A DNA stretch of 64,000 nt from Gloeobacterales cyanobacterium (GTDB lineage Bacteria > Cyanobacteriota > Cyanobacteriia > Gloeobacterales > PMM-0068). Below are positions 11,156 through 36,204 of this stretch, in pieces. The position numbers and the translations under genes were made by a program. How positions within the stretch are numbered: position 1 is the first letter of the stretch; every line of letters starts with the position of its first letter. The DNA lies in assembly GCA_038245785.1 (NCBI GenBank), contig JBBRSB010000003.1, positions 64,001 through 128,000 of the forward strand. Reading direction: 5' to 3'. Below the pieces are notes generated by a model, which ran no database searches, had not been told where the DNA came from, and was given only the letters and a program-made list of their open reading frames with translations.

Positions 11156-11165
11156 GGAAATACTT

Positions 11166-12602: not shown

Positions 12603-12666
12603 GCGGTGGTTCTCCTACTATCTATGGCAGTCCAGTACTTCTTTTCTTGAGCCCCCCGCTCAGGAG

Positions 12667-16861: not shown

Positions 16862-19204
16862 TTAGCTACTGGTTGTAAAAACAACATCAACCCAGTAATT
16901 GGTCGATTGGAACGTATCCGTTGGGAACGCTCTGCCGCCATACTTGTAAACTCCGTTACCACCACTATCACCATCCTTGAGCGCTCTGAGGGGTGGGTTT
17001 TCAGTGAACGTAGCGGCGAAATAGCCTTCGTCGCTCGAGTAATGTCCAACATCCGTATGATAGGACGCGACATAAATGACGTTCGCTGTGATCGGAACAG
17101 GAGTGGCAAAGTTAAGCTGCTGCCAACCGGAGGGGGTTTCATTGATAAAAGTTTCTGTGGCCAATTGCTGACCAGTACTTGTCCACAAAGTGCCGACATG
17201 CGTTCCTGTGTTCGCGCTGCCTTTGAAAAAGCGAATGCCTGTAATGAAACCATTAGTATTGGCTTGAAATCTGACACCCAGTTCAACAGCCTGATCGTCC
17301 GCCTCAGATAATACCTCTGGGGTAGCCGTAGCATCCCAGATGCTACAGGGGCAGGTGCGTGGCGTGACAGTGACTGAAATACCAGCTCCAACTGTTTCGA
17401 GATTGCCACTATCATCTACTGCACGGCTCTTAATGTTCACAGTACCGGTGGTTGTGGGTAGCCAACTGTAACCCCAACTCTCGCGACCGTTCGCCGGATG
17501 CCAGATCGTGCCACCATCAATCGAGACTTCAACGCCCCCTACCACACCGCCGCCTGTGTCGGCTGCAGTCCCTGTAATCAGGATGAGACTACCATTTTGA
17601 ACAGTTGCCCCATCAGTAGGTGACGTAATGGTTGAGGTTGGGGCCGTCGTATCGGTAGAAGCAGTCGCTGGGACTAGCCCCGCTGGGCCTGTTTGCAAGG
17701 TTTCAGGTTGAACTCCCATATCAGCCAGTAAATTGACCGTGGCCTGTTTCATCCGTCGATCTGACCCTGGGCCAACGCGATCGTGCTTTTCATCTAAGCC
17801 CCAAGACCATTGAATCGTCCCTGCTCCAAACACAAGGGCACCGCTACTATGTCTATACAACGTCAGATGGTGGGTGGCAGTGCCAGATGCATAGGTTCCA
17901 CCAAAATCTTGTAGGACGTCAACATTGCTTGCCACCGTTGTGGATAAGCGAATTAAACCAGGTGGACGAGATCCATTATCTGCATCTTCATCCCATTCAT
18001 ACCCCAATGTTCCATCAGGGAGTGTAATCGGGCTGCTGCCGGGGGTGAGATTGGCAATATCAGTATTGCGCCAGAAACGCATCTTGCCATCTGCCTCAGG
18101 AACGACGATTGCTTTCGTGCCCTCGTTCACTTTGAAGGAAGTGCCCGTTAAGGCATTTTCGGGGCGATTACAATCTGATGTTGTACTACAGCGGGGGTCG
18201 CGCCATGTACCTGTCCAAGTGGGTGGTTCCTGGGGATCTTTTGCATTAGGATCAACCCCATTTTTTTCAAAAGTCTGCTTGTAACAAACTAAGGTGCGGT
18301 AGGGCGTATTGGATGGATCCGTGCTGTTTTCCCATCGGGTCTTCCAGAAGATTTCATTACCACTGAAGAAAGCTAGGTTAACCCCAGCATCTCGAGCCGC
18401 CTCGACGTTAACCCGCTGCTGAGCTGACCAGTATTCATCATGACCGATCGATAGAAAAACCTTGTGGTTGAGGATGAGATTGCCCCGGCGATCGCTATCG
18501 ACTCCAGTAAAGTAGCTGACGTCATAGCCGTTTGCTTCCAACCAACGCACCATCGGGTATTCCGCGTTAAAAACCCAATCTTGACCACCATCAACTGCGC
18601 GAGTGTTGAATGGACGGTTGTAGCTCACTTTGTAGGCTCTCCCTGGGTTCACACCCGGTGCTCCCACATAAAGGCTAGTTTCTCCAAAATTACCGCCTAA
18701 TTTGTCGCCAAAGTTGTTGTAGGCTTGCCAAGTAGTATCTGACGCTTGAAACAAAATGTTCGATTGACTGGCATCATCGCGAACAATGAAAAAGATATGA
18801 CTCGCGCCTGCAGGACTGGTGCGAACAACTTTCGCAAAGTAGATGCCAGAGGTTGCATCTGCCGGAACGTCCCACGTCGCAGAAACGTCCCAATTACCGC
18901 AATCGATCAGGCCCGTAGTCGCGTTTCTCAAACACTTCGGTTGATTCTGAGGCTGCTGTCGGTTAACTGGAACCGTATCAACTTTGCGAGCACCTGCTCC
19001 ACCGTAATAGCCCATGCGATAGATATCGAGACGATAGCTGGTGGCAGGGGTTTTGATTTTGAAGGAAACAGTTTCCCCCCGATTGACGCTAATCTGAGTC
19101 GCGAAACCCTGGAGGTTATCATCTCCTGCACCTTGAATGTCCCATTCAGTTTCATCATTTCCCGGTTTAGCATTCTCGACAACAATCGGATTTTGGTTTG
19201 CCAT
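16862..19204 (-). CDS. N,N-dimethylformamidase-beta-like domain + Ig-like domain + DUF4082 protein
   Basis: YRMGYYGG.GAR, TTWQAYN, VSYNRPF, GHDEYWS, FFSGN, GYEWD, GTIQWSWGL; C-terminal VELGVRF...ITGIRF...NYWVDVVF. Confidence 0.82.
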   Translation of the reverse strand: MANQNPIVVENAKPGNDETEWDIQGAGDDNLQGFATQISVNRGETVSFKIKTPATSYRLDIYRMGYYGGAGARKVDTVPVNRQQPQNQPKCLRNATTGLIDCGNWDVSATWDVPADATSGIYFAKVVRTSPAGASHIFFIVRDDASQSNILFQASDTTWQAYNNFGDKLGGNFGETSLYVGAPGVNPGRAYKVSYNRPFNTRAVDGGQDWVFNAEYPMVRWLEANGYDVSYFTGVDSDRRGNLILNHKVFLSIGHDEYWSAQQRVNVEAARDAGVNLAFFSGNEIFWKTRWENSTDPSNTPYRTLVCYKQTFEKNGVDPNAKDPQEPPTWTGTWRDPRCSTTSDCNRPENALTGTSFKVNEGTKAIVVPEADGKMRFWRNTDIANLTPGSSPITLPDGTLGYEWDEDADNGSRPPGLIRLSTTVASNVDVLQDFGGTYASGTATHHLTLYRHSSGALVFGAGTIQWSWGLDEKHDRVGPGSDRRMKQATVNLLADMGVQPETLQTGPAGLVPATASTDTTAPTSTITSPTDGATVQNGSLILITGTAADTGGGVVGGVEVSIDGGTIWHPANGRESWGYSWLPTTTGTVNIKSRAVDDSGNLETVGAGISVTVTPRTCPCSIWDATATPEVLSEADDQAVELGVRFQANTNGFITGIRFFKGSANTGTHVGTLWTSTGQQLATETFINETPSGWQQLNFATPVPITANVIYVASYHTDVGHYSSDEGYFAATFTENPPLRALKDGDSGGNGVYKYGGRAFPTDTFQSTNYWVDVVFTTSS

Positions 19205-19287
19205 AATCACTCATCTCCATCGTATGATTTAGCTGTTGCATATTCATCTTTGCTGTCCCTATGACATGGCCCAGACAACTATTCCAC

Positions 19288-19310
19288 GTTTAATTCCGCC
19301 TATCTACTTA
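19288..19310 (-). repeat. Isolated end of the dispersed repeat, overlapping a stop codon
   Basis: Minus strand TAAGTAGATAGGCGGAATTAA matches the 5' end of repeat copies 1 and 2. Confidence 0.6.
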
Positions 19311-22300
19311 TTGAAGTGTAAAGACCACATCAACCCAGTAGTTGCTCGATCGAAAAGGATCCATTGGGAACGCTCTGTTACCATACTTGTACACTCCGTT
19401 ACCATTGCTTGCACCATCTTGAAGTGCTTGTAAGGGTGGATTATTTACGCCTGCGGTTGCAAAGGCATCATTGTTAACAGAATAGAGTCCAACCTCGGTG
19501 TGATAAGACACAATCAATGTCGTGTTTGCCATGATCGGCACTGGGTTACTAAAACTAGCTTGCTGCCAACCGGAGGCGGTTTCATTCATGAATTTTACCG
19601 AGGCTAACTCCTCACCTGAACTATTCCATAAGGTTCCAATATGAGTACCTATATTATTGGCACCTTTAAAGAAGCGAATGCCTGTGATAAAACCATCTAC
19701 ATTGGATTGGAATTTGAGGCCCAGTTCGACCTCATTCGGATCGTTGACTTCTACTTGATCCGGAGTCGTTGAGTTGTTCCAGATACTACATGGACAGTTA
19801 GGTCCGCCAGCGGTTGTAAACGAGCCGTTGAAGTTTGCTTCTAGTGCATTACCAGATGGATCTTTAATGCGCGGATCAGTGGTGCCTCCTTTGACTTGAA
19901 ACGTGTAGGCCGTGGATGCAGTTAGGGTTGCATTGGGCTGTAACACCGCTGTGCGCGTCTCGGCATTATAGGAAAGCGTCGCAGCTACAACAGCGTTAGC
20001 TGGATCGCGTAACGTAAAAGTGCTGGCATTAACAGTGGATGGATCGATTGCCTCATTAAAGGTCACATTTACACTCGTATCAGCAGCGACGTTTGCCTCA
20101 CCGTTCGCAGGAACTGTTGAACTTACGGTTGGAGCAACTGTATCTTGACCGTAGGTTGCCACATAGGCTCCAGCAGTGGCTGGGAAGAAGGCATACTTGA
20201 TCCCTTTAATGGTTTCTTGGATATAGTCAACGTTGCTTCCATCTCGTGTAATGCCGTTGATCAGTGTGCCCGTTGTCGATTGTAGGGGCAGCATTGCCTG
20301 CAATCCAGTTGTATTGCTGCCTGGAGTAATCCTAAAACTCAAACTATTGCCATTCCAGGACAGCAAGCTAAATGAGGAATCCTGGCGACCATCGAGCCAG
20401 GTTAGCATTTGACGAGCGGAAACGACGGGCACCCCACGCGTTTTGGCAGATCCCACAACTGCGTCCGATTTTGACCGATCGCGATCGGTGTGTGCATTGA
20501 CGACAAAGGCACCATAATATCCTTCCGCGCCAATCGCTTTATCTAACAGAGTATCGATCGTAAATGGGTACACCTGCCCTGACTCATCTGTCATCTGCGT
20601 GGTCGCTTGGTAAACATCGATCGGAGTGCCATCAAGGTCTGCAAAGCGCATCACCATTCCACTGCCTGTGAAGAAACCTGGTTGTTTATCGACTCCTGGC
20701 TGTTTCTTATTCACCCAAGGACCGGGCCAGTAGTAATAGGTCGTATCAAGACGAATCCCGTTATTAAGCTCAGCTTTAGCCTGACTGACCCAATCGCTCC
20801 ATACAAGACAATGGCTTCGATTTGTAGTGGGTGCAGGGACACTAGGATAGTTATTGTGAAATTGTAGGAGTTGAGTGGTCAAGCTAGTTGTAATCGATTC
20901 AAGCGTGTAATTGGAACATTCGCGAGTTGTGGGCTGATCGGGGACAGTCGTGAGATGCAGCGCTACTTCAAAATTGTCAGATACGGCGTCGCCTGCGGTC
21001 TGATTATTGAAGCTCGTTGCACTGGTTTCAGGATAGACATAGGAGGTACTCCGTATACACTCCCATTTCTCCACAGAGCAGGAGGCAGGACTGGCGGTAC
21101 GATGTTCATTAAAGCGAGCAGCAGTGCCTCCTCTCGCGTGATCATCTCCTGTCAGGATTACAACTGCTTTCTTGCGATTTGGGAAATACCAGAAACGTGG
21201 AAGCGGCTTCTTCGCCAAGTTCATCTTCAAAATCAAGTTTGCCAACAAGCGCTGTTGTTCGTCTGCCTGGGGAATGGCAATTTTATCGGGGTTAACCCAA
21301 TCTTTGTTAGAAGCGAAAAGCGTATCGGGTGGACTACTTACATCAGCACAATTTGCTTTAGGTCCGCCGTAGTATGCATCGTCTGAGCGGATTGGTTCAC
21401 AACCATCGCGTTCTCGTGCTGTTTGCGGTTCCAGATTTGCCCACTGTGGATCTCCCTGGCGTGTGTAAACGATCGATTTCGCTAAGTCATAGGTAAATGC
21501 TGCCACCTGTCCCCCATTCGGACCAACACTGCGTAAGGTTAGCGCAGGATTCGCAGCACAGCTTCCTGCGTCTGCACTGGTGCACAGGGTTGCGAGACTA
21601 GCAGCACCATTCTTTAGCGTATAGGGATCAGCAGGACCATGAAACTGAATGGTTTCACCGACAATACCTTTACCCGGTTCTATCGAAGTATTGACCTGCA
21701 CATATTGATCCGAACGGGTTGTACCTGAAGCAATCAGTCCAATCAAATCAGTCAGCTGCTGGTTATTCTTGTCAGGACGCATGACAATGAGATTGCCACC
21801 TTGGTTGACCCAGTTGTTCAGCAAAGTGACCTTACTAGCATCCACAGGGGTCTCGCCCAAGAGCGTAATATCAGCACTATTGAGCGTTTGTTCTGAAACT
21901 AAATTAATATCCGTGACACTAAAGGCATTGAATCCTTCATTCCGCAAAATCTCGGCGTAGTACTTGCTGAAGGGATTTCCAGGATTTGTAATCACTAGGA
22001 TAGGACCTCCCGGTCCTAGATCAGGTAGCCGTTGAATAGCGTTCGCTGATATCCGGGGAGCTGCTGATCGACGACTCCTATCCGATGAGCTGGGTTGGGT
22101 GGGAACCTGAAGGCTTTGGCGGGGTTGACTCGTTGCCAAATCTCGCAAGATAATTTTCCCATCTCTACCTGCACTCGCAAACGCCTTTCCGTCTGGGCTA
22201 AAAGCAAGTGCGGTAATAGAATTCGGTTGTGCTCGTACGAGTTGTCTTTGTCTTTGGGCACCTGGGAGCGGTCGCCCCGTTCTTAAGTTCCACTGAATGA

Positions 22301-23141
22301 TTGAATTGTCGTCGCTTCCACTGATTAACGTCTTACCATCGGGGCTGAAAGCAACTGCTTTGATCGGACGGGGCTGACCACGAAGAATCTGCCGCTGTTG
22401 CCCAGTTGAGCTGTTCCATTGGATGAGGAGGCTGTCATCCCCCCCGCTGACAAGGGTTGTTCCGTCTGGACTGAACGCAAGTGCCCTGGCGGGTTGCGTG
22501 TGTCCCTGAAGTAATTGGCGCTGTTGTCCTGTTCCCACATCCCACAGCTGGACTGTGGCATCCCAGCTTCCGCTTGCTAATGTTTTTCCATCCGGACTAA
22601 AGGCAATGCCTACTACACCATTAGCGTGTCCTTTCAGAATCTGACGCTTCTTACCTGTTGCGACATCCCACACAATCACTTGATTATCATTACTTCCACT
22701 CGCTAGGAGTTTTCCATCAGCACTGAAGGCCACTTTATTGACGAAGTCTCTATGTCCTTCTAGAAACTGGCGTAGCTTACCAGATTTTGCATCCCACAAT
22801 CCGACCACTGTATCTAGTCCCGCACTCGCGATCGTGGTTCCATCAGGACTGAAGGCGACGGTGCTAATGGGATGTTCATGTCCCAAAAAAATCTGGCGTT
22901 GTTTCCCCGTTGGACGATCCCACAAGCGAATGACAGTATCGTTACCGACGCTGACTAAGGACTTCGTATCAGAGGAAAATGCGATCGAAGTAATTCGATT
23001 TGCTGAGGTTGAACTTTGGGGAGTCTGTTTTTGTGGAGTCTGTGCTGAGAGGATTGAGACTGGAAGCTTGATCAGCCCTGGCAGAAGAATTAGAAAGGCA
23101 ATGTAGCAAAAAAATGTAGCATATCTAAACAATCGGCTCAT
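19308..23141 (-). CDS. Secreted WD40-repeat + deacetylase-like + Ig-like + DUF4082 protein
   Basis: Signal-like N-terminus, about 7 GH...AFSPDG...WD repeats, ILTGDDH/RSH/RLDTTY region, Big_5-like TFNEAIDP, C-terminal NYWVDVVF. Confidence 0.82.
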   Translation of the reverse strand: MSRLFRYATFFCYIAFLILLPGLIKLPVSILSAQTPQKQTPQSSTSANRITSIAFSSDTKSLVSVGNDTVIRLWDRPTGKQRQIFLGHEHPISTVAFSPDGTTIASAGLDTVVGLWDAKSGKLRQFLEGHRDFVNKVAFSADGKLLASGSNDNQVIVWDVATGKKRQILKGHANGVVGIAFSPDGKTLASGSWDATVQLWDVGTGQQRQLLQGHTQPARALAFSPDGTTLVSGGDDSLLIQWNSSTGQQRQILRGQPRPIKAVAFSPDGKTLISGSDDNSIIQWNLRTGRPLPGAQRQRQLVRAQPNSITALAFSPDGKAFASAGRDGKIILRDLATSQPRQSLQVPTQPSSSDRSRRSAAPRISANAIQRLPDLGPGGPILVITNPGNPFSKYYAEILRNEGFNAFSVTDINLVSEQTLNSADITLLGETPVDASKVTLLNNWVNQGGNLIVMRPDKNNQQLTDLIGLIASGTTRSDQYVQVNTSIEPGKGIVGETIQFHGPADPYTLKNGAASLATLCTSADAGSCAANPALTLRSVGPNGGQVAAFTYDLAKSIVYTRQGDPQWANLEPQTARERDGCEPIRSDDAYYGGPKANCADVSSPPDTLFASNKDWVNPDKIAIPQADEQQRLLANLILKMNLAKKPLPRFWYFPNRKKAVVILTGDDHARGGTAARFNEHRTASPASCSVEKWECIRSTSYVYPETSATSFNNQTAGDAVSDNFEVALHLTTVPDQPTTRECSNYTLESITTSLTTQLLQFHNNYPSVPAPTTNRSHCLVWSDWVSQAKAELNNGIRLDTTYYYWPGPWVNKKQPGVDKQPGFFTGSGMVMRFADLDGTPIDVYQATTQMTDESGQVYPFTIDTLLDKAIGAEGYYGAFVVNAHTDRDRSKSDAVVGSAKTRGVPVVSARQMLTWLDGRQDSSFSLLSWNGNSLSFRITPGSNTTGLQAMLPLQSTTGTLINGITRDGSNVDYIQETIKGIKYAFFPATAGAYVATYGQDTVAPTVSSTVPANGEANVAADTSVNVTFNEAIDPSTVNASTFTLRDPANAVVAATLSYNAETRTAVLQPNATLTASTAYTFQVKGGTTDPRIKDPSGNALEANFNGSFTTAGGPNCPCSIWNNSTTPDQVEVNDPNEVELGLKFQSNVDGFITGIRFFKGANNIGTHIGTLWNSSGEELASVKFMNETASGWQQASFSNPVPIMANTTLIVSYHTEVGLYSVNNDAFATAGVNNPPLQALQDGASNGNGVYKYGNRAFPMDPFRSSNYWVDVVFTLQ

Positions 23142-23741
23142 TGCAATCACATCCTTTACTGAATTCCTAAAATTTGATGAAATAACCAACTCGCCATGAC
23201 GGTTACAAGATATTGACGCACTGGAACATTGAACTACTTTCCCCTTCAGCAGCCAGGATTGGAATTTCCCTTCGATGTTTACTCAAACTGAAATTGATAT
23301 TGCAAACATACTCATAGTCATTTAAAAAAAGACAGAAAAGAGTGTGCTTTCCGGAATGCAGAGATCCTATTGAAGAGCTAAGTTTCTATATACTATTTAG
23401 ACATCTGGCTTAATGCACAAACATCTAAGGACAAATATACTTAGCAAAAATAGAATGTCAATTGGAAGATCTTTCGGTGAATTTTGTCAGCTCTTAGGTG
23501 ATTGTTGACTTCACTAAAATTTATTTATTTTGGTCGAAATATTAGATTTTATGTGGATAAATAGCAGCATCCGGTTGACAATGACTGCTGAGCAAGTCAT
23601 TAGCTGGTTAAAGTTCGGCTAAAGTTTCTATAGACACATCCTACAAACCCAGCCTGTAACCAACTTTGAATTTTCATGAAGACGCGGTTCCCTGACCGTG
23701 GGATACTGCGATCAAGACTTATTGAGAGCAGTATCCGCCCC

Positions 23742-24455: not shown

Positions 24456-24877
24456 TCTAGGCCTAAGGTCGCCCTGAGATATTCATAGAAACTCAGAAAA
24501 TACACATATCTTGCTTAGGAAAAGATAGGAAGCAATTTTATGCAAATTTGCTTGTCTTTGCTCAGCTCCTTCTCTGTTTACATTGCGTAATTCTTTACCA
24601 TACGCCAGGGAAATTTATATGAAATCATCTTACAAACATAATAAACAGAGCATATAAAAGGGGAATTTACAGTAATCTCATTAGGAATTTATCAAAAGTT
24701 CATAATGAGACCAATTCGTCTTCGCTACAATTTTGCCCAGTAGTCTCAGTGTAAATACTTATTTATGTAACAAAAAGCACATTTAGTGACGGTATGTACG
24801 TAATAGTACGTAGACATTGCAGTAGGGCCGCCTGCTGAATGCAACAAAAAGTAATCCCCAGCAATAAATTTCGGAAA

Positions 24878-24978
24878 GAGTGAGCGGGCCTTGCAGGTTT
24901 TTAAATCGCGGCCTCTCCTCCAATAGCCCTTTGGCTGTTTAAAGCAAAGAAGGGCCGTAGTCCAGAGATGGTGTGTCC
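24878..24978 (+). promoter_or_regulatory. Conserved structured leader (copy A) upstream of the wza operon
   Basis: GAGTGAGCGGGCC..GGTTTTTAAATC..GGCCTCTCCTC, GCCCTT..AAGGGC, AGAGATGGTGTG; preceded by TAAATT at 24865-24870. Confidence 0.78.
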
Positions 24979-25022
24979 AAACAACGTGAAAGTTGCCCAT
25001 GCTACAGGAGTTGAACAAGTCC

Positions 25023-26015
25023 ATGCTCTTTCAAAAGCGCTCTTCGACCGCACATATCGGCCTATCCATGGGGCTTCTAGGCACCGCTTTTATCCTCTCA
25101 ACGGCACAGGTCTCAGCTAATACGCTGAGTGCTTTCGACCGCATTTCGGTTGCTGTTATCAATGGAGAGGAATTCAGCTCGGCAAGAGGAGCTGTGGATG
25201 AAGGGTTTCTCATTGGAGAGGATGGTCAGGTTTTTATCCCTCAGTTGGGCAAGATGCGAGCCGCTGGGCGGGAAGAGTCAGAACTCCAGTCGGATCTTGT
25301 CGATCGCTTGCGGGAGTATATCAGAGTGCCCAGCGTGTCGGTACGTCTAGTCTCTGTCAGTCCTGTGTCTATTGATGTGAGTGGTGCGGTGTACCGACCG
25401 GGGACGGTCACCCTTCTACCGGATGCAGCCACCCAAGCCAGTATTAAAGATGTAGGAGTTTTGCGCACCGCTTTCAATGCGATTAGAAAAGCAGGCGGGG
25501 TCCGTCCAGATGCAAACCTGGCAGGTATCGAGATTGAGCATGAAGGTAAGCGAAAAACACTTGCGCTAGGCCAGGATACTTCTGTAATCACGGGGGACCG
25601 GATTATTATCTCCAGCTTGGGAACAGCACAAATGGATGCCAATAATGTGCCATCGCAACTAGCACCTAGCGAAATCAGCGTCTACGTCTCGGGGCAAGAT
25701 TTGCCCCCTGCTGCCATTGGTGCTGTAAAAGTCAAACCGGGCACTCCTTTATCTGGAGCCTTGACTGCTGCAGGAGCGACCGGACAAAGCTTTTTGCGTA
25801 GTGACCGAGAAGTGGTACTTATCCGTGGCAATCCAACCACGGGCAAACGAGACCTAATGTCCTACAGACTCGACAAAATAGTGACCGGGGAGACGGACCC
25901 AAAGCTACTACAGGATGACAGCATTCTAGTTAATGCGGGTTCTACAGCCAATACGGCTAGTTTTTTGGGCTTTCTTGAGCCTCTTTTCAATCCGCTCAAG
26001 CTTTTACTCCGCTAA
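25023..26015 (+). CDS. wza: Polysaccharide export protein (Wza/OPX, SLBB domains)
   Basis: Signal peptide, DGQVFIPQLG..RAAG poly_export motif, V.GAVYRPG, AI..AGG; start could also be 24999. Confidence 0.85.
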   Translation: MLFQKRSSTAHIGLSMGLLGTAFILSTAQVSANTLSAFDRISVAVINGEEFSSARGAVDEGFLIGEDGQVFIPQLGKMRAAGREESELQSDLVDRLREYIRVPSVSVRLVSVSPVSIDVSGAVYRPGTVTLLPDAATQASIKDVGVLRTAFNAIRKAGGVRPDANLAGIEIEHEGKRKTLALGQDTSVITGDRIIISSLGTAQMDANNVPSQLAPSEISVYVSGQDLPPAAIGAVKVKPGTPLSGALTAAGATGQSFLRSDREVVLIRGNPTTGKRDLMSYRLDKIVTGETDPKLLQDDSILVNAGSTANTASFLGFLEPLFNPLKLLLR

Positions 26016-26072
26016 CTTCAGCACCCATTTCTGCATCAACTGTAATCAACTGTTCATGGAGTACCAAAGTTT

Positions 26073-28133
26073 ATGAGTAACGTTACTGCCATTATCCGCA
26101 GACACTGGAAGCCTTTGCTGGCCTTAAACTGTGCTCTGTTCGCCGCCACTGTGAGTGTTGCTCTATATTGGCCACGCACATGGACAGCTACTGCCAAAGT
26201 TATTCTGCCCAATGTGACGGGAGGACTAGATGCCAGCCTGGGCACCTTGGGAAATCTCCGTGATACAGGAAACGGATTCACTCAAGAAGTGAACCCCCCT
26301 ACAATTCAAGCCACGATTCTCAAAAGTGATGATGTAATTCAGCGCGTATGGATGGATGATCCCGAGAAAGACCTATACAAAAAGCTGGACCAGTATGCCA
26401 GTTTGTTCAAGGTGTCTCCTAAGGATCAATCTACCGTGATTGATATAGAGGTCCGGGGCTCCAGCGCAGAAGGTGTCCAGGCACGCGCACAGGCGCTCCT
26501 TGCAGCATACCAACAGCGTTTGAACGAACTACGCAAGGATGATGCAGCGGTACGCGAAAAATTCAGTCGAGAGGAGCTCGAAGCAAGTCAGCGTGATCTA
26601 TCCCAAGCGCAGCTTGCCCTTTCCAAGTTTAAGCAGGCTACGGGACTGGTCAATGTCAATGAGCAGACCAGAGCACTCGCCAGTTCTATCAGCACCTTAA
26701 CTGCAGCACAGACACAGGCTCTAGGGGAGGGCAAAGCTGCTGAGATTCGGAGTAAGGTTCTAGCATCGCGCATTGGCATGACTCCTGAGCAAGCCTTCGG
26801 TTCACTGCGTCTTGGCGAGAACAAAGAGTACCAGGCTATCCGGCAGAAGCTATCGGAAGTTGAAATTGCTTTGACCGATGCGCGTGGACTCTACACCGAC
26901 AAGAATGATCGGGTACAGTCCCTGCTCTTACGCCGAGAAGAACTCCTGAATGCGCTCAAGCAAGAAGTTACCAAAGCCCTTCCCCAAGGAGCAACGCAAG
27001 GGATGGATACAACCTTGGGGGGAAACAACTATAGGGATGCCCGGATTGACCTGATTGTGCAACTTATCGAAGCAGAAAGCACAGGCAATGGAGATAAGCA
27101 GCAGGCTGCCCAAATTCAGAAGCAGCTAGATAAGTTCAATACCAATCTCAGGTCCTTTGGAAAAGATGAGGCCATACTACTAGAACTACAGCGCAAATAT
27201 GACATCACTGAGGGTGTGTACAAGGGCTTAGTCGCTCAGATAGAGCAAGCCAAGGTCAATGCCTTCAACAGCTATCCGAATGTGCAAACGCTTGACCAGC
27301 CCCATGTTGACCCCAAACCTACGAGTCCTAAAATATTCCTGATTGCCCTGGGGGGTGCGCTGGGTTCAATCTTTGGAAGCCTAGCGCTGGCCCTGGGTTT
27401 GGAAAGCCGCAACCCCCTATTTGGCCCAAGAGATTTACAGAGAACGGAGTTGCCCGTCCTTGCGCGTATGCCAAAGTTTGCAAATCCCGCATCAAATTCA
27501 GAACTCGCTCTTGCTAGGGAAGATTCGGTATTCCAACGGCTTGCTTCGGCGGTCAGCGTCATGCCGTTAGAGAACCAGCGTCTACTGGTCACTAGCTCAA
27601 CCTTCGGGGAGGGGAAAACGAGTATAACGCTAGGGTTAGCTCTAGCCTTGAATGCCCTGGGGTTTCGGGTCCTCCTTGTGGATGGGGACTTCCGCAAAGC
27701 AGACCTGAGTGGTCGCTTTGCAGCAATGCAAAAGATGACGGAACAGTTAGCCGATGCTGGGCAGCCCATCCCGATACGCGATGGTCTTGATCTGCTACGT
27801 ACCGAAGCAAAACAGGAAAGAATCGGAGAATTTGTGCTCCGTGGCGGTTTAGAACAAACTATCGATAGATTGCAGGCTAACAATCACTACGACTACGTCC
27901 TGGTAGATAGCCCACCGATGAGCCTAACCAGTGAAGCATCGCTGATGGTTACGTACCTCCAAAATGTTTTGTTTGTGGTCCGTCCTGGCGTCAGTGACCG
28001 CTATGCGGTAACAGAGAGTCTTGAGCAGCTTGCGCGGCAGAATGCCCACACCATTGGTCTATGCATTAACGGGCTAGAGACACGGACGGAAGGATACCGC
28101 TATGGACGTAGTGAAGCTCAGGTAGGAACATGA
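26073..28133 (+). CDS. wzc: Polysaccharide co-polymerase / tyrosine autokinase (Wzc/GumC)
   Basis: Two TM segments flanking a coiled coil, Walker A TSSTFGEGKTS, LVDGDFR, VLVDSPP, C-terminal GYRYG. Confidence 0.9.
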   Translation: MSNVTAIIRRHWKPLLALNCALFAATVSVALYWPRTWTATAKVILPNVTGGLDASLGTLGNLRDTGNGFTQEVNPPTIQATILKSDDVIQRVWMDDPEKDLYKKLDQYASLFKVSPKDQSTVIDIEVRGSSAEGVQARAQALLAAYQQRLNELRKDDAAVREKFSREELEASQRDLSQAQLALSKFKQATGLVNVNEQTRALASSISTLTAAQTQALGEGKAAEIRSKVLASRIGMTPEQAFGSLRLGENKEYQAIRQKLSEVEIALTDARGLYTDKNDRVQSLLLRREELLNALKQEVTKALPQGATQGMDTTLGGNNYRDARIDLIVQLIEAESTGNGDKQQAAQIQKQLDKFNTNLRSFGKDEAILLELQRKYDITEGVYKGLVAQIEQAKVNAFNSYPNVQTLDQPHVDPKPTSPKIFLIALGGALGSIFGSLALALGLESRNPLFGPRDLQRTELPVLARMPKFANPASNSELALAREDSVFQRLASAVSVMPLENQRLLVTSSTFGEGKTSITLGLALALNALGFRVLLVDGDFRKADLSGRFAAMQKMTEQLADAGQPIPIRDGLDLLRTEAKQERIGEFVLRGGLEQTIDRLQANNHYDYVLVDSPPMSLTSEASLMVTYLQNVLFVVRPGVSDRYAVTESLEQLARQNAHTIGLCINGLETRTEGYRYGRSEAQVGT

Positions 28134-29479
28134 TTCAACTGTGGGATTCATCCCTGTCTATCGCTACTCGACCTATTAAACCAGAGGAGCCTACAGGTCC
28201 TTTGCAAGGGTATGGGATTCGCTGGAAAACCCTGACCAGAGCGGAGCAGTTAGTCTGCGCAAGCATTGCTCTGCTGCCCCTTTGGTGGATATTGGGATGG
28301 AGCTGGACGCTTGCGGTGTGGATGCTGGGTATAATAGCCCACGATATTTTTCGCTATGGCAATCTCCGTTTTAAGAGTCCAACTTTATCAGCAGCTGCAT
28401 TACTGGCTTTCGGGTTTTATACCCTCATCAATTCAAATCTTAGAAGTCCTACTTTCAATCTGAACTCCGTGATCGGTCCGACAACGCTGTGGATTTGTGC
28501 TGGTTTGGCGCTTTGGTACATACAGAGCAACGACATCCGCATACGTCCGCAGGTTATGGCCTGGGCCTTCTCGGTTAGCATCATCCAGATGATTGTGTTC
28601 TGGCTAATAGTTCACTTTGGCCTGTCAGAGCATAGCTATATTCCATACCGTACTCTTTTTGGATTCCTGACAGATAAGGGTGAGCAGTTTATCCCCGGTG
28701 CCGGTAATGCTAATTATCTAAAACCCTATGAGCCGAGCGAGAAAGGATTAGGGGGCTTGGCTCGTTACAGCTTTTTCTTCGCTCACCCATCTACCTGTGC
28801 CCTGTGGGTAGGCTTTGCCGCCCTGCTGAGCTTAGATATGAAAAACCGTATCTGGGCAACATACATGGTTTTGGGGTGTTCTTTCTTATTATTGTTAGGC
28901 CAAACTCGCTCTGCCTGGCTTGCTTTTCCCGTGGCGCTGGCAGCTCGCTACTTTTTCAATAGAAGTAAAGTTTTCCTTTTTGCCCTCGTTTCAGTGGTGA
29001 GTCTTGCCGTATTGTCGCTTCCTCCAATTACTGATTCACTCCTTGGTAATTACACAGGGGCTATAGAAGCAACGAGTCATCTCCGCAAAGATTCAAGCAA
29101 GGTTCGTAATTTAATTTATGCGCGGACCTTGGAACGTATTCCAGAAGAACTACTTTTAGGACATGGCATCAATGGACCAACAGTTCTACCGGGGTTCGAT
29201 GCTGGACGTATTGGATCCCATAGCTTCTTTCTTGGAACGCTGCTCTATAAAGCTGGCGTATTGGGCACAGCCATTTTTACAACTTTTCTAGTTTCTCTCT
29301 TCTTATGGCTCGCTAGAACTAAAACAGGTAGGCCTACCTGTTGCTTTTTTATATTTCTGTATTTTGGACTGAATTTACTGGTCGAAGAGCCTGAGATAGT
29401 AACAGTTTTACTCGTCTTACTCTGCACCTTATTAAGGGAGACTGCGATAACTCTTAAGGGAGGATTGGACCATGCGTAA
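28130..29479 (+). CDS. O-antigen ligase/Wzy-family polymerase
   Basis: Multiple TM segments, FF.HP, TRSAW, LLGHG, GSHS motifs; follows wzc. Confidence 0.8.
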   Translation: MIQLWDSSLSIATRPIKPEEPTGPLQGYGIRWKTLTRAEQLVCASIALLPLWWILGWSWTLAVWMLGIIAHDIFRYGNLRFKSPTLSAAALLAFGFYTLINSNLRSPTFNLNSVIGPTTLWICAGLALWYIQSNDIRIRPQVMAWAFSVSIIQMIVFWLIVHFGLSEHSYIPYRTLFGFLTDKGEQFIPGAGNANYLKPYEPSEKGLGGLARYSFFFAHPSTCALWVGFAALLSLDMKNRIWATYMVLGCSFLLLLGQTRSAWLAFPVALAARYFFNRSKVFLFALVSVVSLAVLSLPPITDSLLGNYTGAIEATSHLRKDSSKVRNLIYARTLERIPEELLLGHGINGPTVLPGFDAGRIGSHSFFLGTLLYKAGVLGTAIFTTFLVSLFLWLARTKTGRPTCCFFIFLYFGLNLLVEEPEIVTVLLVLLCTLLRETAITLKGGLDHA

Positions 29480-30689
29480 GCTTCTGGTTCTAGCGGGAGA
29501 AAATGATGGGTTGGGCGGTACTCTGGTTTCTCGCTCGATGCTGGCCTTGGGATTTAAACAAAGTAGTGTGTCTGAGCAACTACAGATTCTAGTTCAATCT
29601 AACTCATTCATGGAGCAATACTTGCGGGATGCAGGTCACGGATTCTGTTTGCAGCCAGTCGAAGCAAAAGACAGGACCCAATTCATGCAGCGCTCCTTTC
29701 GCTGGGTGAATCAGCAACCCCGAGATTGGCCTTTGCTTCTAGATAACTGTGTTGACAAGCAAGTAATACCAGCCATTTTGAAAGCGACTCTAGCACTGCG
29801 GTTAAGTGGCCGTCCTGTCTATCACTTCTGCCATGATTTATGCCTATCTCACAATGCGCTGGGCTATGCCCTGCGGAAAATTGCTTTCACCTGCCTCTCC
29901 CCGCACGTCCTCTGTAATTCGCAATTCACCGCTACGAACGTCTGCAGTCTGATGTCTGATATCCGGGGAATTCTATACCAGCCTGTAGACCTGGAACAGT
30001 TCCATCAGCGCCCCTCTACCCAGCCAGTTCCTGAAGGATTGAAGCCCATCGTGCAGTCTGGGGCTCGTTTGATGTTGACCCCTTCCCGCATCAATCAAGT
30101 GGGAATTGTCAATGACAAAAATTTGCGGGCACTTATCCCCGTAATTGCTCAACTCAAAGCGATGGGGCATCACTACCACGGCGTGGTGATTGGTCCAGAT
30201 GGTTCTCCCGACCTGGCCAATACTCGTGTCTTGCTCGATCAAGCGGCGGAGGCAGGCGTCGGAGACCGTTTCACCATCTTGCCGCCAATGAACAAGATTG
30301 AAGACTGCTATAAGCATGCCGATATTGTTGTGACGCTTGCCCCACGAGAGCCTTTCGGTCGTACTGTCGTCGAGGCAATTGCCTGTGGCGTCCCGGTCAT
30401 TGGTAGCCGCAGCGGAGGAATTGGTGAAATTCTCAATCATTTCGCACCGCATTGGACCGTTGAACCCAATGACCCTCTAGCAGTGGCGCAGGCGATCCTC
30501 CGGGTTGCTTCTGATCCTATGACATCAGGCATTCTTGCCCACGGCAGAGCTTGGGTCGAGCAACGGTGCAGCGTTCAAGAGTATGCCCGTGGGGTGATGG
30601 AAGTTACGGGCATTACCCATAAGGTCACCCAACCAGAACACCCTCCAATTCATGCTCCATACCCTGACCCCATAGGAGAACGGGCCTAA
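29472..30689 (+). CDS. Glycosyltransferase family 4
   Basis: EPFGRTVVEAIACGVPVI. Confidence 0.9.
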   Translation: MRKLLVLAGENDGLGGTLVSRSMLALGFKQSSVSEQLQILVQSNSFMEQYLRDAGHGFCLQPVEAKDRTQFMQRSFRWVNQQPRDWPLLLDNCVDKQVIPAILKATLALRLSGRPVYHFCHDLCLSHNALGYALRKIAFTCLSPHVLCNSQFTATNVCSLMSDIRGILYQPVDLEQFHQRPSTQPVPEGLKPIVQSGARLMLTPSRINQVGIVNDKNLRALIPVIAQLKAMGHHYHGVVIGPDGSPDLANTRVLLDQAAEAGVGDRFTILPPMNKIEDCYKHADIVVTLAPREPFGRTVVEAIACGVPVIGSRSGGIGEILNHFAPHWTVEPNDPLAVAQAILRVASDPMTSGILAHGRAWVEQRCSVQEYARGVMEVTGITHKVTQPEHPPIHAPYPDPIGERA

Positions 30690-31924
30690 TGCAAAACTCA
30701 CAGCTTCAGGCCTCGACTTTCGTTGAGGCAACTTCTTCAACTGCCGACATCCTGGTAATTTCCCGTGTCTTTCCCCCCGCAGTTGGTGGTATTGAGGAAT
30801 ATGCCTATAACCGCTGCCTGCAAGACCCAGACCGGGTGATTGTTCTGACCGCATCCTGTACAGGAGAAGAGGCTTTTGATCAGGCTCAATCTTTTCCTGT
30901 ACACCGCTGGCCTATGCCGTCTTACCTCCGCTCTGTGGGTAAACTCGGCAGTCTGCTCAAACAGATCGTCAATATGGTTTGGTCATTCATTATGGCGGTC
31001 CAACTTTATGGGCGCTATCGCTATCGCTACATCGAGTGGTGCCATGGTTATGACTTTCCTGCGCTGCTGCTATTGAGCTATGTGCTCCCGATTCGTTTTT
31101 TTGTCTATCTACACGGCAACGATGTCCTTTGCCCAGCCAAAAATCCACTGCTGCATACGCTGTTTGAATGGACTCTGAGCAGAGCAGAAGGGGTCGCTTG
31201 CAATAGTTCTTTCACTCGGGATTACCTGAAAGACCATTTTCGATTTGATGCTCCCACCTACGTGATCACGCCAACGGTCAGACCAGAAAAGTTTGGCCCT
31301 AGAGATCTTTTAAAGAAAGCTCCCGCCTTACGTGCTGCAGTGCGAGCCAAGTACAATATCCCGGAAGAAGCGGTTGTCATCTTGTCCGTCGGGCGTCTTG
31401 TCCGCCGCAAGGGATTCAATCGGGTCATCGAAAATTTACCAACTTTGTTGGCTAAAGGACTAGATGTTTATTACTTAATCTGCGGTCGAGGCCCTTTAGA
31501 AGCTGAACTTAAGGCACTAGCTAGTCAACTCGGTGTCCAGGATCGCGTTCTCTTCGCAGGCTATGTACCGGATGAGCAGCTCGCCAGTTATTACGCTGCC
31601 TGTGACCTGTTCTCGATGCTTACGTTCTTCGATGCAGAAGACAAAAGTATTGAAGGCTTTGGCATCGTCTATTTGGAAGCAGGTTACTTTGCAAAACCTG
31701 TAATCGCTGCACGGGTCGGAGGCGTAGAAGATGCCGTCCACAATTTAGAGACGGGTCTACTGATTGATCCGAATGCTGAGGAGGAGATTACTGACGCTCT
31801 GCTCCAACTCTGCACGGATCAACCCTTGCGGGAACGACTTGGTCTCAATGGTCAAGCTTTAGCCAATCGCAAGATACCTCATCGAATCCTCTATAAAGAT
31901 CGAGTTGTCTCTACCCTTAGCTAA
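30689..31924 (+). CDS. Glycosyltransferase family 4 (PimB-like)
   Basis: FPPAVGGIE, VGRLVRRKG, EGFGIVYLEA. Confidence 0.92.
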   Translation: MQNSQLQASTFVEATSSTADILVISRVFPPAVGGIEEYAYNRCLQDPDRVIVLTASCTGEEAFDQAQSFPVHRWPMPSYLRSVGKLGSLLKQIVNMVWSFIMAVQLYGRYRYRYIEWCHGYDFPALLLLSYVLPIRFFVYLHGNDVLCPAKNPLLHTLFEWTLSRAEGVACNSSFTRDYLKDHFRFDAPTYVITPTVRPEKFGPRDLLKKAPALRAAVRAKYNIPEEAVVILSVGRLVRRKGFNRVIENLPTLLAKGLDVYYLICGRGPLEAELKALASQLGVQDRVLFAGYVPDEQLASYYAACDLFSMLTFFDAEDKSIEGFGIVYLEAGYFAKPVIAARVGGVEDAVHNLETGLLIDPNAEEEITDALLQLCTDQPLRERLGLNGQALANRKIPHRILYKDRVVSTLS

Positions 31925-31953
31925 ACATCAACTGTTCTACATAAGGACTAACT

Positions 31954-33132
31954 ATGAAGCCACAGACTCTAAATAGCCACCAGCAGCTTCAACTCGCTTT
32001 CGTTACGCCCTACGATGCTAGAAATGTAAGAAGTTGGTCAGGTATTCCGTACCATATGTCTCAGGCTTTCACCCATGGGGGCTCTGCCGTTGAATATATT
32101 GGACCCTTGAAGAAAGAATTATTCTCGAAGCTTGCTCTTAGCTCTAAAAAGGCAGCCTATAAACTCTTAGGCAAAAAGTATCTCACTGATTGGGATAAGC
32201 CAATTCTCAAAGGATATGCTCAACAGATATCAAAAATCCTTTCACAAAAAAAAGCAGATTTTATCTTAAGTACAATTAGCTATCCGTTTGCTTTCCTCGA
32301 ATCTGATGCTCAATTTGGATTCTGGTGTGATGGAACCTATGCAGCTATGCTCGATTATTACCAGACTTATAAACACTGTTCTTCTGAAAGTATTGAAACA
32401 GGTTTGGCTTTAGATAAGTCTATTTATCAGCGGTCAAAATTAGCTATATTTGCTTCTGATTGGGCTGCTAAGAGCGCCATTGATGATTATCAGCTAGATG
32501 CGAGCAAAGTTCATGTTGTGCCTATGGGTGCAAATCTTGAATGTAATCGAAATACTCAAGACATAGAAGATATCATTAGGTCTCGGCCTCAAAATCAATG
32601 TAATCTGCTATTTATTGGCATTGAATGGAATAGAAAAGGTGGCGCTGTAGCCTTTGAGGTTGCTCGAAAATTAAACGAATCAGGATTGAAAACCGAATTG
32701 ACTATTGTTGGCTGTGAGCCAATAGTAGATGGCCCATTGCCAAACTATGTCAAGCCTTTAGGCTTTATTAGTAAGTCGACAGAAGAAGGTCGTAATCGCC
32801 TTCATCAACTGTTTAAGGAATCACATTTTCTTATTGTTCCATCTAAAGCTGAGTGTTATGGAATCGTCTTTTGTGAGGCGAATTCCTATGGGTTGCCTTG
32901 CCTTGCTACTACGACAGGAGGTATACCTACCATTATTAAAAATAATATCAATGGGCATACCTATGCTCTTGATGCCTCGATCGATGAATACTGCTCTTTT
33001 ATTACAGAGTTTTTTGGTAATAACAATAGATATACAAATCTAGCTTTATCTTCATTCAACGAGTATAAAACTCGCCTAAATTGGTCTGTAGCCACCAAAA
33101 CAGTTGAACGATTAATTCGAGCAGTGCGTTGA
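31954..33132 (+). CDS. Glycosyltransferase family 4
   Basis: WSGIPY, LFIG.EWNRKG, ECYGIVFCEA. Confidence 0.9.
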   Translation: MKPQTLNSHQQLQLAFVTPYDARNVRSWSGIPYHMSQAFTHGGSAVEYIGPLKKELFSKLALSSKKAAYKLLGKKYLTDWDKPILKGYAQQISKILSQKKADFILSTISYPFAFLESDAQFGFWCDGTYAAMLDYYQTYKHCSSESIETGLALDKSIYQRSKLAIFASDWAAKSAIDDYQLDASKVHVVPMGANLECNRNTQDIEDIIRSRPQNQCNLLFIGIEWNRKGGAVAFEVARKLNESGLKTELTIVGCEPIVDGPLPNYVKPLGFISKSTEEGRNRLHQLFKESHFLIVPSKAECYGIVFCEANSYGLPCLATTTGGIPTIIKNNINGHTYALDASIDEYCSFITEFFGNNNRYTNLALSSFNEYKTRLNWSVATKTVERLIRAVR

Positions 33133-33180
33133 ACTAGCCTCCTACTTTCTATACAGATCAAATTCCCAATTGAAGTTTTC

Positions 33181-34611
33181 ATGACACGGATCGCCACATC
33201 AAAAATTGCTAGCAGCAGCCTATGGTTGGGTGGAAGCTTTGCCTTTGCCAAAGGATTCCAACTTATTTCTCAGGTTGTTCTTGCCCGCCTCCTCGCCCCC
33301 GAAGATTTCGGTATCTGGGCCATGGTTCTGATTTGGACGACTTTATCTGCCCTGTTCAAGGACACGTCTATCGCCCAAGTGTTGGTCCAAAGAGGGTTAG
33401 GTGACCAGAAGCGGGTGAATGCGGTCTATAGCCTGGGCGTTAACATCTCCGTTGGCATGTTTGTCCTGCAATCGCTGGCTGGATTTCCTCTATCCCAGTT
33501 TCTTGGGGTAGCTGTACTATGGCCTCTCACTGCTTGTACCGGCTTGGTTTTTCTGATCAGCGCTGGGACTGGCTCCCATGCAGCTGTCATGCAGCAGCAG
33601 ATGCGCTTCAAAGAGATTGCGATCTGTGATGCCATAGCCAGTTTGGCGAGACTGGCAGGTTCCCTCGCCTGTGCACTCTATGGTGGTGGAGTCTGGGCCT
33701 TTGCGGCGGGAGAACTGGCCGCTGCATTGACTGATTCCCTCCTCAAGCGTTGGCTGAGTGGCTACCGCTTTACTTATCACCTGATTCCAGATTCAGAGGC
33801 TCTTCGCGAGGTGCGGGGCTTTGTCAGCAGCATGGTGGGGATAAATCTGGCCGTTCAGGCCAATACAAACGGAGACAATTTAGTTATTGGTCGCTTGCTC
33901 GGAGCACAGGCACTCGGCTACTACAACCTTGCCTATCAACTAGCGATGCTACCTGTCTTTGCGCTATCGCAGATTAATCGGGTGAGCTTTTCCGTTCTAT
34001 CTTCTCTGGACAAGCCAGCCAAACAAGCGTACGTCTGTCAGGCCCTAGAGCTATACGCCATCTTGTCTGCTCCAATCTATGGAGTTGCCTTTGTGCTCTC
34101 TCCCTTACTTATTCCCTGGCTCTATGGACCTGCATGGACAGCAGCCGTATTAATTTTTCAGCTAGTACTGGTTTTTGCTTATGCACGGGGGTTTATGGGC
34201 ATTCTAGGAACAGCTTTGAATGCTCTGGATAGACCGGATACCAATGCGGCAATTAACTGGGCACTCGTGCCCCTTTCGATTCCTTCCTACCTGCTAGGAG
34301 CCTGGCTCGGGGGAACAACAGGAGTCGCCATTGCCGTAGCTATCGTTATGGGCATTGGAGCAACGATCTGGTTTTGGATAGCGACCTGTCGCGTGGCTGG
34401 CTGGAAACTGAGCACTTTCTTAGAGCCGGTTCTACTGCCCAGCTTAGTTGTGGTGATTGCGGTAGCGACGGTGACTATGACTTCCGTACCGATTATTTGG
34501 CAACCTCTGATTGTCCTCAGCATCTATGGGCTGAGCTTAGTTATATTTTCTTCCGGTCGGATTCCCCAGATGCTCTTCACCTTAGGGAGACGCGCTCTTG
34601 CAGACAAATAA
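33181..34611 (+). CDS. wzx: Wzx flippase (WzxC-like)
   Basis: VLARLLAPEDFG, DNLVIGRLLG..ALGYYNLAY; multiple TM segments. Confidence 0.9.
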   Translation: MTRIATSKIASSSLWLGGSFAFAKGFQLISQVVLARLLAPEDFGIWAMVLIWTTLSALFKDTSIAQVLVQRGLGDQKRVNAVYSLGVNISVGMFVLQSLAGFPLSQFLGVAVLWPLTACTGLVFLISAGTGSHAAVMQQQMRFKEIAICDAIASLARLAGSLACALYGGGVWAFAAGELAAALTDSLLKRWLSGYRFTYHLIPDSEALREVRGFVSSMVGINLAVQANTNGDNLVIGRLLGAQALGYYNLAYQLAMLPVFALSQINRVSFSVLSSLDKPAKQAYVCQALELYAILSAPIYGVAFVLSPLLIPWLYGPAWTAAVLIFQLVLVFAYARGFMGILGTALNALDRPDTNAAINWALVPLSIPSYLLGAWLGGTTGVAIAVAIVMGIGATIWFWIATCRVAGWKLSTFLEPVLLPSLVVVIAVATVTMTSVPIIWQPLIVLSIYGLSLVIFSSGRIPQMLFTLGRRALADK

Positions 34612-35725: not shown

Positions 35726-35754
35726 TTTTTGTTCTTCATTAGAGATCAATTGTC

Positions 35755-36204
35755 ATGAAACTAGTACTGGTTTGCAATCCAGGGGGTCATTTTTCGACCA
35801 TGCTGGGGCTCGAAGAACTATGGTCTAAACATCAGCGTGAGTGGGTCACGTATTCCCGAGCTGATACAGAAAAACTTCGGGGTAAAGAAGTAGTCCACTG
35901 GGTCATCAAACAGGAAGCAAGAAAAACTGGCAGTACCCTAGTGAATTTTTGGAAAGCACTATGGATTCTGCACAAGAGTCGGCCAGATTTAGTCATTTCA
36001 ACAGGGTCGAGCTTAGCCGTTCCCTTTATATTTGCCAGCAAGTTATTCGGTATCAAGACTATTTTTGTGGAAAGTATCTCACGTTCCTATGACTTAAGTC
36101 TGGCAGGGAAACTAGTTTACAAAATAGTCGATGAAATTTATGTTCAATGGCCGGAGTGTTCTCAAAGTTATCCAAAAGCTCAATACAGGGGGATGGTTCT
36201 ATGA
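35755..36204 (+). CDS. Alg14/PssD/CpsF-like glycosyltransferase subunit
   Basis: CNPGGH, PDLVISTG, FVESISR, YVQWP. Confidence 0.9.
   Translation: MKLVLVCNPGGHFSTMLGLEELWSKHQREWVTYSRADTEKLRGKEVVHWVIKQEARKTGSTLVNFWKALWILHKSRPDLVISTGSSLAVPFIFASKLFGIKTIFVESISRSYDLSLAGKLVYKIVDEIYVQWPECSQSYPKAQYRGMVL

Follow-up and report, generated by a model that had tools for sequence, protein, structure and literature searches.

Control of polysaccharide operons by elements encoded in their leaders is an established theme in bacterial gene regulation. In the JUMPstart/ops–RfaH system the ops element works in the form of non-template DNA, and a NusG paralog that opposes Rho is required. UpxY of Bacteroides is a NusG-like regulator, encoded by the first gene of a polysaccharide operon, which acts via the 5′ untranslated region of that operon. 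In phages, the N protein of lambda with its boxB RNA, and the put RNAs of HK022, which act in cis on the polymerase, give read-through of long transcription units. The EAR element (epsC, RF01735) is situated within the eps operon and folds in a more complex way than the element considered below, a leader present in three diverged copies (A, B and C) in 64,000 nucleotides of DNA from a Gloeobacterales cyanobacterium (contig JBBRSB010000003.1, positions 64,001 to 128,000; hereafter the window), each copy standing before a run of polysaccharide genes (Table 1). EAR was described in Bacillales and reportedly promotes read-through (Weinberg et al. 2010, PMC2864571). In cyanobacteria, the regulation of operons for exopolysaccharide, sheath, O-antigen-type and heterocyst-envelope polysaccharides is poorly understood, and it is of relevance to biofilms, blooms, soil crusts, symbiosis and the biotechnological production of exopolysaccharide.

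The three elements of the window are very probably members of a widespread cyanobacterial family of 5′ leader RNAs for polysaccharide synthesis and export operons, a statement that covers the existence of a real, polysaccharide-specific regulatory leader RNA. The best explanation of the data, to which we give a probability of roughly 0.55, is that this leader would be recognised in trans by a small protein, here called X, and would in this way control polysaccharide operons. The leader shares with JUMPstart/ops the character of a short conserved 5′ signal of long polysaccharide operons, where one genome-wide factor could serve many, and with EAR the association of a structured RNA with exopolysaccharide operons. 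What is new here is the RNA family and the protein family, and there is a realistic chance that the mechanism is new as well. The gain is a widely conserved cis element, a candidate partner protein and a regulon of ten leaders in a single genome.

An earlier reading made from the sequence alone (the sequence-only reading) had proposed three repeats, and each was found in its place; they are homologous, with a mean column identity of 70% in an alignment of the three. When paired by hand, hairpin P1 joins a purine-rich 5′ arm to a CTCTC tract, with an inner stem of T/C-G-N and its complement below a GGTT..AATC apex, and the inner stems differ between the copies as that reading had described. Its claim that hairpin P2 covaries was also confirmed, as the arms vary yet remain complementary (CCCTT/AAGGG, CCTTT/AAAGG and CTTTC/GAAGG in the window, CCTC/GAGG in a fourth copy of the same genome outside it). 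A purine-rich tail ending in GGTGTG is retained in A, B and C, and the 12-mer noted after P2 is indeed present in all three. Two other pairings were considered and rejected. RNAalifold, given the three copies, paired the CTCTCC tract with the downstream 12-mer, and this was ruled out because the 5′ purine arm covaries with the tract family-wide and because this alternative is out of reach for relatives whose tail differs. A helix between the P2 5′ arm and the tail was dropped because, by eye, the tail does not follow when P2 covaries.

Covariance models were built from four copies of the window's own genome (R1) and from 27 full-length copies (R2), and are accompanied by alignments A5 and A6. 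The model search that had been recommended as a check returns a real family, with ten copies rather than three in the window's own genome. Ten matches are found there by R1, the weakest of which (19.5 bits) lacks P1 in its alignment and was discounted, and ten copies by R2 at E ≤ 0.001. Among fetched loci R1 recovers 37 homologues, and it matches 18/61 related genomes; genomes of the same genus retain the leaders. In the family as a whole a long, bulged P1 with a sequence-conserved inner helix is followed by a short conserved linker, P2 and the purine-rich tail ending in GGUGUG. In the 27 copies, 90.5% of cells are paired, against 40.6–60.1% when the partners are slid, and compensatory changes are seen in 14/23 pairs; none of 500 shuffles reaches any of five measures. 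In 101 copies 89.2% are paired and 13/23 pairs show compensatory changes, this larger set being partly selected by its P1 pattern, so that the inner P1 pairs are invariant by construction; several helix pairs are invariant in 97–98 of 99 rows of that alignment. G-U pairs are many, and the loops of P1 and especially of P2 range from a few to more than 60 nt. The frequency of G-U pairs, the variable loop length and the strand-specific co-orientation with genes indicate RNA hairpins transcribed from this strand rather than a DNA palindrome or operator. Tandem leaders also occur, with two or three copies 100–1000 nt apart before a single X gene (L137:2485-3331, L113, L087, L111, L141 and L094), and at G101:C142:5063-5439 three copies lie back-to-back.

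The sequence-only reading had considered the element lineage-specific, which is contradicted by its distribution. R2 matches 39 of the 151 genomes in a sample of the class (35/132 among those of good quality), spread over 23/81 genera. An exact P1-core pattern, scanned over one genome per species in 185,579 species, matched at least 123 stretches. Among the matches listed, 78 of the 80 titled loci are named cyanobacteria (at least 78 records), and their genera include Nostoc, Anabaena, Dolichospermum, Calothrix, Fischerella, Scytonema, Leptolyngbya, Moorena, Spirulina, Pseudanabaena and Halothece. The two non-cyanobacterial titles listed are a contig of a 'Rhizobium' metagenome-assembled genome (MAG) with the full motif and X, and a Burkholderiales MAG, to which the model has no match. 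The 'Rhizobium' sp. contig (L075) carries a full-length leader of 82.9 bits together with an X gene of the type usual in Nostocales, and it is probably a cyanobacterial contig mis-binned into that MAG.

It had also been suggested that the element is not a described RNA motif, and this holds for the sources searched. At gathering score Rfam 15 returns only a tRNA in the window and nothing at six leader loci, and with E raised to 10 a cmscan of copy A and of a Calothrix copy gives nothing relevant, JUMPstart and EAR (RF01735) included; EAR, whatever the likeness in role, is thus unmatched even at that threshold. No description of the motif or of X was found in the full-text literature searched, subscription papers and supplements lying outside that search. 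In the passages of one comparative survey that describe wcaG, epsC/EAR and JUMPstart (PMC2864571) this motif is absent.

The genes behind the leaders are the second line of evidence. By their Pfam matches the three gene runs of the window are polysaccharide operons (for run B, by its first two open reading frames (ORFs)). In the window's own genome the ORF that follows each of the ten leaders, 3–351 nt downstream and in the same orientation, is a polysaccharide gene: one wza-like Poly_export gene, two wzx-like Polysacc_synt genes, three family 2 glycosyltransferases (GT2), and one each of a Wzz-like gene, an NTP_transferase, a Bac_transf and a GNVR/ParA Wzc-like gene. The possibility of a generic repeat, with copies at unrelated loci, was thus not borne out in this genome, and the proposal that polysaccharide operons are headed by a structured cis element with covariation is supported. 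In relatives the next ORF is polysaccharide-related in 19/33 cases, or in 20/33 with an FkbM methyltransferase included; the remaining 13 comprise four of mobile or DUF type (Uma2, DUF2887, DUF3782), five others (AMP-binding, phosphopantetheinyl transferase (PPTase), HAD, transaldolase and a sub-threshold GH39) and four without a family. Among the matches listed from named genomes, 55 of 77 next genes are polysaccharide-related, namely 32 Wzm-type ABC-2 permeases, seven GDP-mannose dehydratases/epimerases, six Wzz/GNVR proteins, five HepA-like ABC exporters, three UDP-glucose dehydrogenases, one Wzt and one FkbM; the remaining 22 are nine mobile-type genes, three others and ten without a family.

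Translation downstream of the copies in relatives revealed a conserved ORF, X, that starts inside the motif. Our table of leaders holds 132 copies, 34 of the 37 from the R1 search of fetched loci and 98 of 101 from the pattern-scan loci listed, leaving out the partial or weak L018, L035 and L043, the partial L127 and two duplicates (L151). In 81 of these 132 the leader runs into X, whose stop lies about 392–395 nt beyond the end of the motif, and X then opens operons of the wzm/wzt, wzc, hepA-like and sugar-nucleotide kinds. In this commoner, ORF-bearing form the Shine-Dalgarno sequence of X, GGAGG, makes up the 3′ arm of P2 and is followed after 5 nt by a weak GUG or UUG start, and an additional 3-bp hairpin with an AAAU loop follows the tail.

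The protein X is about 140 amino acids long, with an Arg- and Lys-rich N-terminus that hardly varies, invariant or near-invariant residues C4, C18, P19, H21, C74 and C77 (numbering of the X alignment) and a conserved C-terminal NPSV.EF motif. An AlphaFold model has a mean pLDDT of 80.4, with blocks 3–10 at 90–94 and the first ten residues, at 52, modelled as disordered. Neither Pfam nor NCBIfam nor the sequences of the PDB gave a match; Foldseek against the PDB found nothing at E ≤ 0.001, and the best Z of a wide VIA-align search (4.7) is within noise. A tblastn search of the plasmid database PLSDB found nothing. In the ESM Atlas only unnamed cyanobacterial clusters are matched, and the homologues are all named 'hypothetical protein', one being from Gloeobacter morelensis, those with a label being cyanobacterial. 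The family is small, with 156 cluster representatives at E ≤ 0.001 among 1.84 billion and 99 at 1e-10. Judged by these comparisons, X is a new protein family without a known family or fold. In two relatives (G006 and G011; L031 and L039) X is fused to a 4′-phosphopantetheinyl transferase domain (ACPS) in a single ORF of 381 amino acids, which echoes the neighbourhood of an X paralog and a PPTase gene in the window's own genome. Single in-frame stops interrupt some X genes (L027, at G018:C1:2021513-2021902; L133; G001:C245; paralogs in G004, G006 and G010); the stop of L027 is a TGA at the position of a conserved Cys codon in relatives, and several other X genes hold one TGA, TAA or TAG.

The placing of the X Shine-Dalgarno sequence inside P2 recalls a riboswitch, in which a small ligand, for instance a sugar nucleotide or the second messenger c-di-GMP, would be bound to switch the polysaccharide operons, and the output of the ORF-bearing form would be sequestration of that sequence. 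The conserved unpaired nucleotides of the linker and tail and the tandem copies, which are known for some riboswitches, would suit such a device. It is nevertheless improbable, as the RNA consists of two simple hairpins with no multi-helix junction, the Rfam riboswitch models give no match, and the window copies appear to have no expression platform, with no terminator-like site and 40–270 nt to the first start codon.

The relation between X and the leader changes the meaning of the 12-mer. In the commoner form it consists of the X codons Gln-Arg-Arg-Cys, and the tail corresponds to the first eight or so codons of X. Across 73 distinct X genes the synonymous choice is nearly frozen in these codons (Arg3 AGG 63/72, Cys4 TGT 71/73, Arg6 CGA 56/67, Asn7 AAT 71/73) and free later (Cys19, 24, 75 and 78 between 44:29 and 35:33; Asn133 44:29), from which it follows that the RNA element extends into the X ORF. 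In copy A the start codon of relatives, GTG or TTG, is replaced by GTC, and a stop follows within a few codons; the 12-mer is nonetheless almost unchanged in the ORF-less window copies, which have otherwise diverged to about 70% identity. Since no start remains, its conservation there must have a reason at the level of nucleotides. The 3-bp AAAU-loop hairpin, which lies directly after GGUGUGA, is 75.8% paired and shows 31 double-change cells against 14.3 in shuffles, and some of these double changes occur in copies where they break the reading frame. In each of the six copies from the window's genus a small stem can form between the GG of the 12-mer and a CC downstream of it, closing a UGUG(U) loop (TGG/CCA, AGG/CCT, TAG/CTA). 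A family-wide UGUG-loop hairpin was tried and is unsupported outside the window's genus, being possible in 11/50 ORF-less copies against 8.0 in shuffles (shuffle maximum 16).

These results bear directly on the mechanism put forward in the sequence-only reading, in which a 12-mer related to JUMPstart/ops would pause RNA polymerase (RNAP) and load a NusG paralog of the RfaH/LoaP/UpxY type for processive antitermination. The element does head polysaccharide operons of 9–19 kb, copy B matches ops as quoted in that reading at 8 of 12 positions by eye, and the nucleotides of the 12-mer are under a constraint of their own. In most family members, however, the 12-mer is coding, and because it forms the first codons of a conserved ORF the 8/12 match is most simply a coincidence of a G-rich word. 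The proposed recruitment of a NusG paralog was not supported either, as a search of the whole own genome, which is 98.2% complete, found the NusG N-terminal domain (PF02357) in one gene only, on contig C6. The RNA-binding domain of Rho (Rho_RNA_bind, PF07497) had no match in this genome; it was matched in nine named control genomes, and in the control Synechococcus elongatus it was not. With a single NusG and no Rho, neither a factor of the RfaH/LoaP/UpxY type nor the suppression of Rho polarity is available here, and the Rfam models of JUMPstart and EAR are without a match. The NusG-paralog mechanism is, on this evidence, hardly credible. The contrast with JUMPstart/ops–RfaH thus extends from the element itself, here a covarying RNA of about 110 nt, to the machinery, and since cyanobacteria lack Rho and RfaH the mechanism cannot be the textbook one.

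In the window's own genome leader and X stand apart. Homologues of X are found on three other contigs and none in the window (Table 1), so that there are ten leaders without X and one X gene, on contig C10, without hairpins; run unfiltered, the model recognises at that gene only the coding tail (12.7 bits) and neither P1 nor P2. Judged from the tail alignment and the lost start, the window copies are derivatives that have lost the X ORF and have kept P1, P2 and the tail under selection. In the 151 genomes the RNA and X occur together in 37, the RNA alone in two (85–86% complete), X alone in eight and neither in 104; the X-only genomes hold mostly the distant paralog type (E 1e-28 to 1e-33). 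Both the co-occurrence and the X gene without P1 or P2 fit an X that acts in trans on the leaders.

The ORF-less copies could instead be decaying relics of X 5′ regions, left by deletion or recombination and without a present function. Their tail does align with the beginning of the X coding sequence, they lack the start codon and their frame closes, and Nostocales genomes hold copies with stops in X. Such decay is very improbable given that ten diverged copies in one genome have all retained P1 and P2 through compensatory changes, that all ten are co-oriented before polysaccharide genes, and that genomes of the same genus retain them.

An unlikely alternative of a different kind is a cis-acting RNA that is independent of any protein, with the hairpins modifying RNAP directly, as in HK022 put or Bacillus EAR, or shielding a long mRNA from 5′-end-dependent decay, X being merely the first regulated gene. 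The ORF-less leaders hold their structure without an adjacent X, and the own-genome X has no leader. The promoter region can be read in the same direction, as a TAnnnT hexamer ends 8–14 nt before P1 in most own-genome and same-genus copies, which would place P1 at the extreme 5′ end of the transcript. The −10 hexamers proposed earlier are present before all three window copies (Table 1), and at the place of that of copy A three same-genus copies have TAAATT or TAAGTT; a scan for sigma-70-type consensus promoters found no site adjoining the three leaders, and a sharp family-wide positioning of the −10 hexamer was looked for and showed no peak. Against a purely cis-acting RNA stand the strong sequence conservation within the helices (97–98 of 99 rows) and in the single-stranded linker and tail, which suggests a specific partner, and the near restriction of leaders to genomes with X (37/39).

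We return to recognition of the leader by X, for which the notion that X itself is the partner stands at about even odds, as judged from sequence. Binding to the leader would be by the Arg-rich end of X. In leaders that overlap the ribosome site of X, it could feed back on the weakly initiated translation of X, and at ORF-less leaders X would act in trans to determine how strongly the entire operon is expressed. The likeliest way would be for X to be carried with RNAP on the nascent RNA, as lambda N is on boxB, and so to affect elongation or read-through of long operons. Elongation is thought the most likely output because of the analogy to lambda N/boxB and to first-gene regulators such as UpxY; taken by itself, an output of antitermination or elongation control remains a tentative proposal that may well be wrong. 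Stabilisation of the mRNA by a 5′-terminal hairpin and translational control are serious alternatives for it. In its most specific form, which is rather doubtful and drawn by analogy, the proposal is of a chromosomal antitermination independent of NusG paralogs, in which the Arg-rich, putative zinc protein X is loaded on the leader and travels with RNAP, and in most species would use the same RNA to hold down its own translation as well. If true, this would be an elongation-control system of a new kind for a polysaccharide regulon (ten operons here), in cyanobacteria that lack Rho and RfaH-type paralogs.

Parts of this proposal are shared with described systems. As with UpxY/UpxZ of Bacteroides, the commoner form has a conserved first ORF behind the leader. 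The three window copies do not have this architecture, X being unlinked from the leaders in their genome; X, which has no Pfam or NCBIfam domain and no fold match, differs from UpxY in this respect as well, and its regulatory role is putative. With lambda N/boxB the likeness would lie in a candidate Arg-rich peptide and a promoter-proximal hairpin, here suggested by the Arg/Lys-rich N-terminus of low pLDDT and by the co-occurrence, and with HK022 put in two tandem hairpins; both are phage systems without a sequence relation to the leader. Autogenous translational operators, such as the leaders of ribosomal-protein operons, resemble the ORF-bearing form in the overlap with a Shine-Dalgarno sequence and a weak start, but here additional ORF-less copies head unrelated operons.

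Several observations weigh against recognition by X and an effect on elongation. No terminator-like site follows any of the three window leaders, and such sites are not enriched inside the 19-kb operon A (21 against 20.1 in shuffles, standard deviation 4.7), so that nothing computational calls for antitermination. The −10-like hexamer is only mildly enriched family-wide, in 65/127 against 47–52 in control windows. Next genes of mobile-type, other or unknown kind follow the leader in 22/77 cases in named genomes and in 14/33 in the first set. The co-occurrence of RNA and X is partly circular, as about 35 nt of the model are the coding start of X, and it is phylogenetically non-independent. Finally, X may belong structurally to the export apparatus and simply be encoded in the operon that is regulated.

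Table 1. Coordinates of the leaders, the operons behind them and the X homologues of the same genome; contigs C8, C10 and C31 belong to that genome, all other positions to the window.
Feature	Position	Strand	Details
Leader copy A, whole covariance-model match	24872-24990	+	R1 109.4 bits, R2 89.8 bits; 3 nt to first listed start (24993) of wza-like ORF, ATG 25024 also possible
Copy A candidate −10 hexamer	24865-24870	+	TAAATT; from sequence
Copy A hairpin P1	24878-24920	+	17 pairs with bulges, apex GGTT-TTTA-AATC; paired by hand
Copy A hairpin P2	24926-24955	+	GCCCTT / AAGGGC
Copy A 12-mer	24964-24975	+	AGAGATGGTGTG; tail 24964-24979, possible small hairpin TGG-TGTGT-CCA
Operon behind copy A	24993-43999	+	wza-like, wzc-like (GNVR/ParA), Wzy_C, GT1 genes, wzx-like, acyltransferases, Alg14/Alg13-like, Bac_transf, 2OG oxygenase (ORFs and Pfam)
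Leader copy B	47080-47199	+	R1 102.4 bits; 262 nt upstream of GT2 ORF (47461)
Copy B candidate −10 hexamer	47068	+	TGTAAAGCT
Copy B hairpin P1	47086-47129	+	
Copy B hairpin P2	47134-47164	+	GCCTTT / AAAGGC
Copy B 12-mer	47173-47184	+	GGAGATGGTGTG; tail 47173-47188, possible TGG-TGTGT-CCA hairpin
Gene run behind copy B	47461-58831	+	short GT2 ORF, then FkbM methyltransferase (Pfam on first two ORFs)
Leader copy C	14258-14148	-	R1 104.4 bits; 186 nt upstream of wzx-like ORF (13962-12667, -)
Copy C candidate −10 hexamer	14266	-	TAAGCT
Copy C hairpin P1	14250-14212	-	
Copy C hairpin P2	14205-14185	-	GCTTTCT / AGAAGGC
Copy C 12-mer	14176-14165	-	GGAGAAGGTGTG; tail 14176-14162, possible AGG-TGTG-CCT hairpin
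Operon behind copy C	4876-13962	-	wzx-like, amine-oxidase-like, GT2, Bac_transf, GT1, GT2, GT2 (ORFs and Pfam)
X homologue	C10:52442-52843 (= L047:1477-1902)	+	49% identity to query; directly upstream of another wza-like gene
Distant X paralog	C31:32971-33372 (L048)		
Distant X paralog	C8:1361-1753 (L049)		adjoins phosphopantetheinyl transferase and ABC permease

Some further features of the window concern the genes around the leaders. The first ORF behind leader B (47461-47781, + strand) has only 106 amino acids and spans positions 1–90 of a 168-position GT2 profile, and it may be a truncated or frameshifted glycosyltransferase. Inside operon A two overlapping ORFs on the + strand, Alg14-like (35755-36204) and Glyco_tran_28_C or Alg13-like (36147-36680), resemble a split, two-part glycosyltransferase. 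Between the polysaccharide operons, at 16862-23189 on the − strand, lie an ORF of 1293 amino acids with WD40 repeats, Big_5 and DUF4082 and another of 782 amino acids with DMFA2_C, Big_7 and DUF4082. Just past the 3′ end of the operon behind leader C there is a tRNA gene (4748-4818, + strand; RF00005, 69.9 bits).

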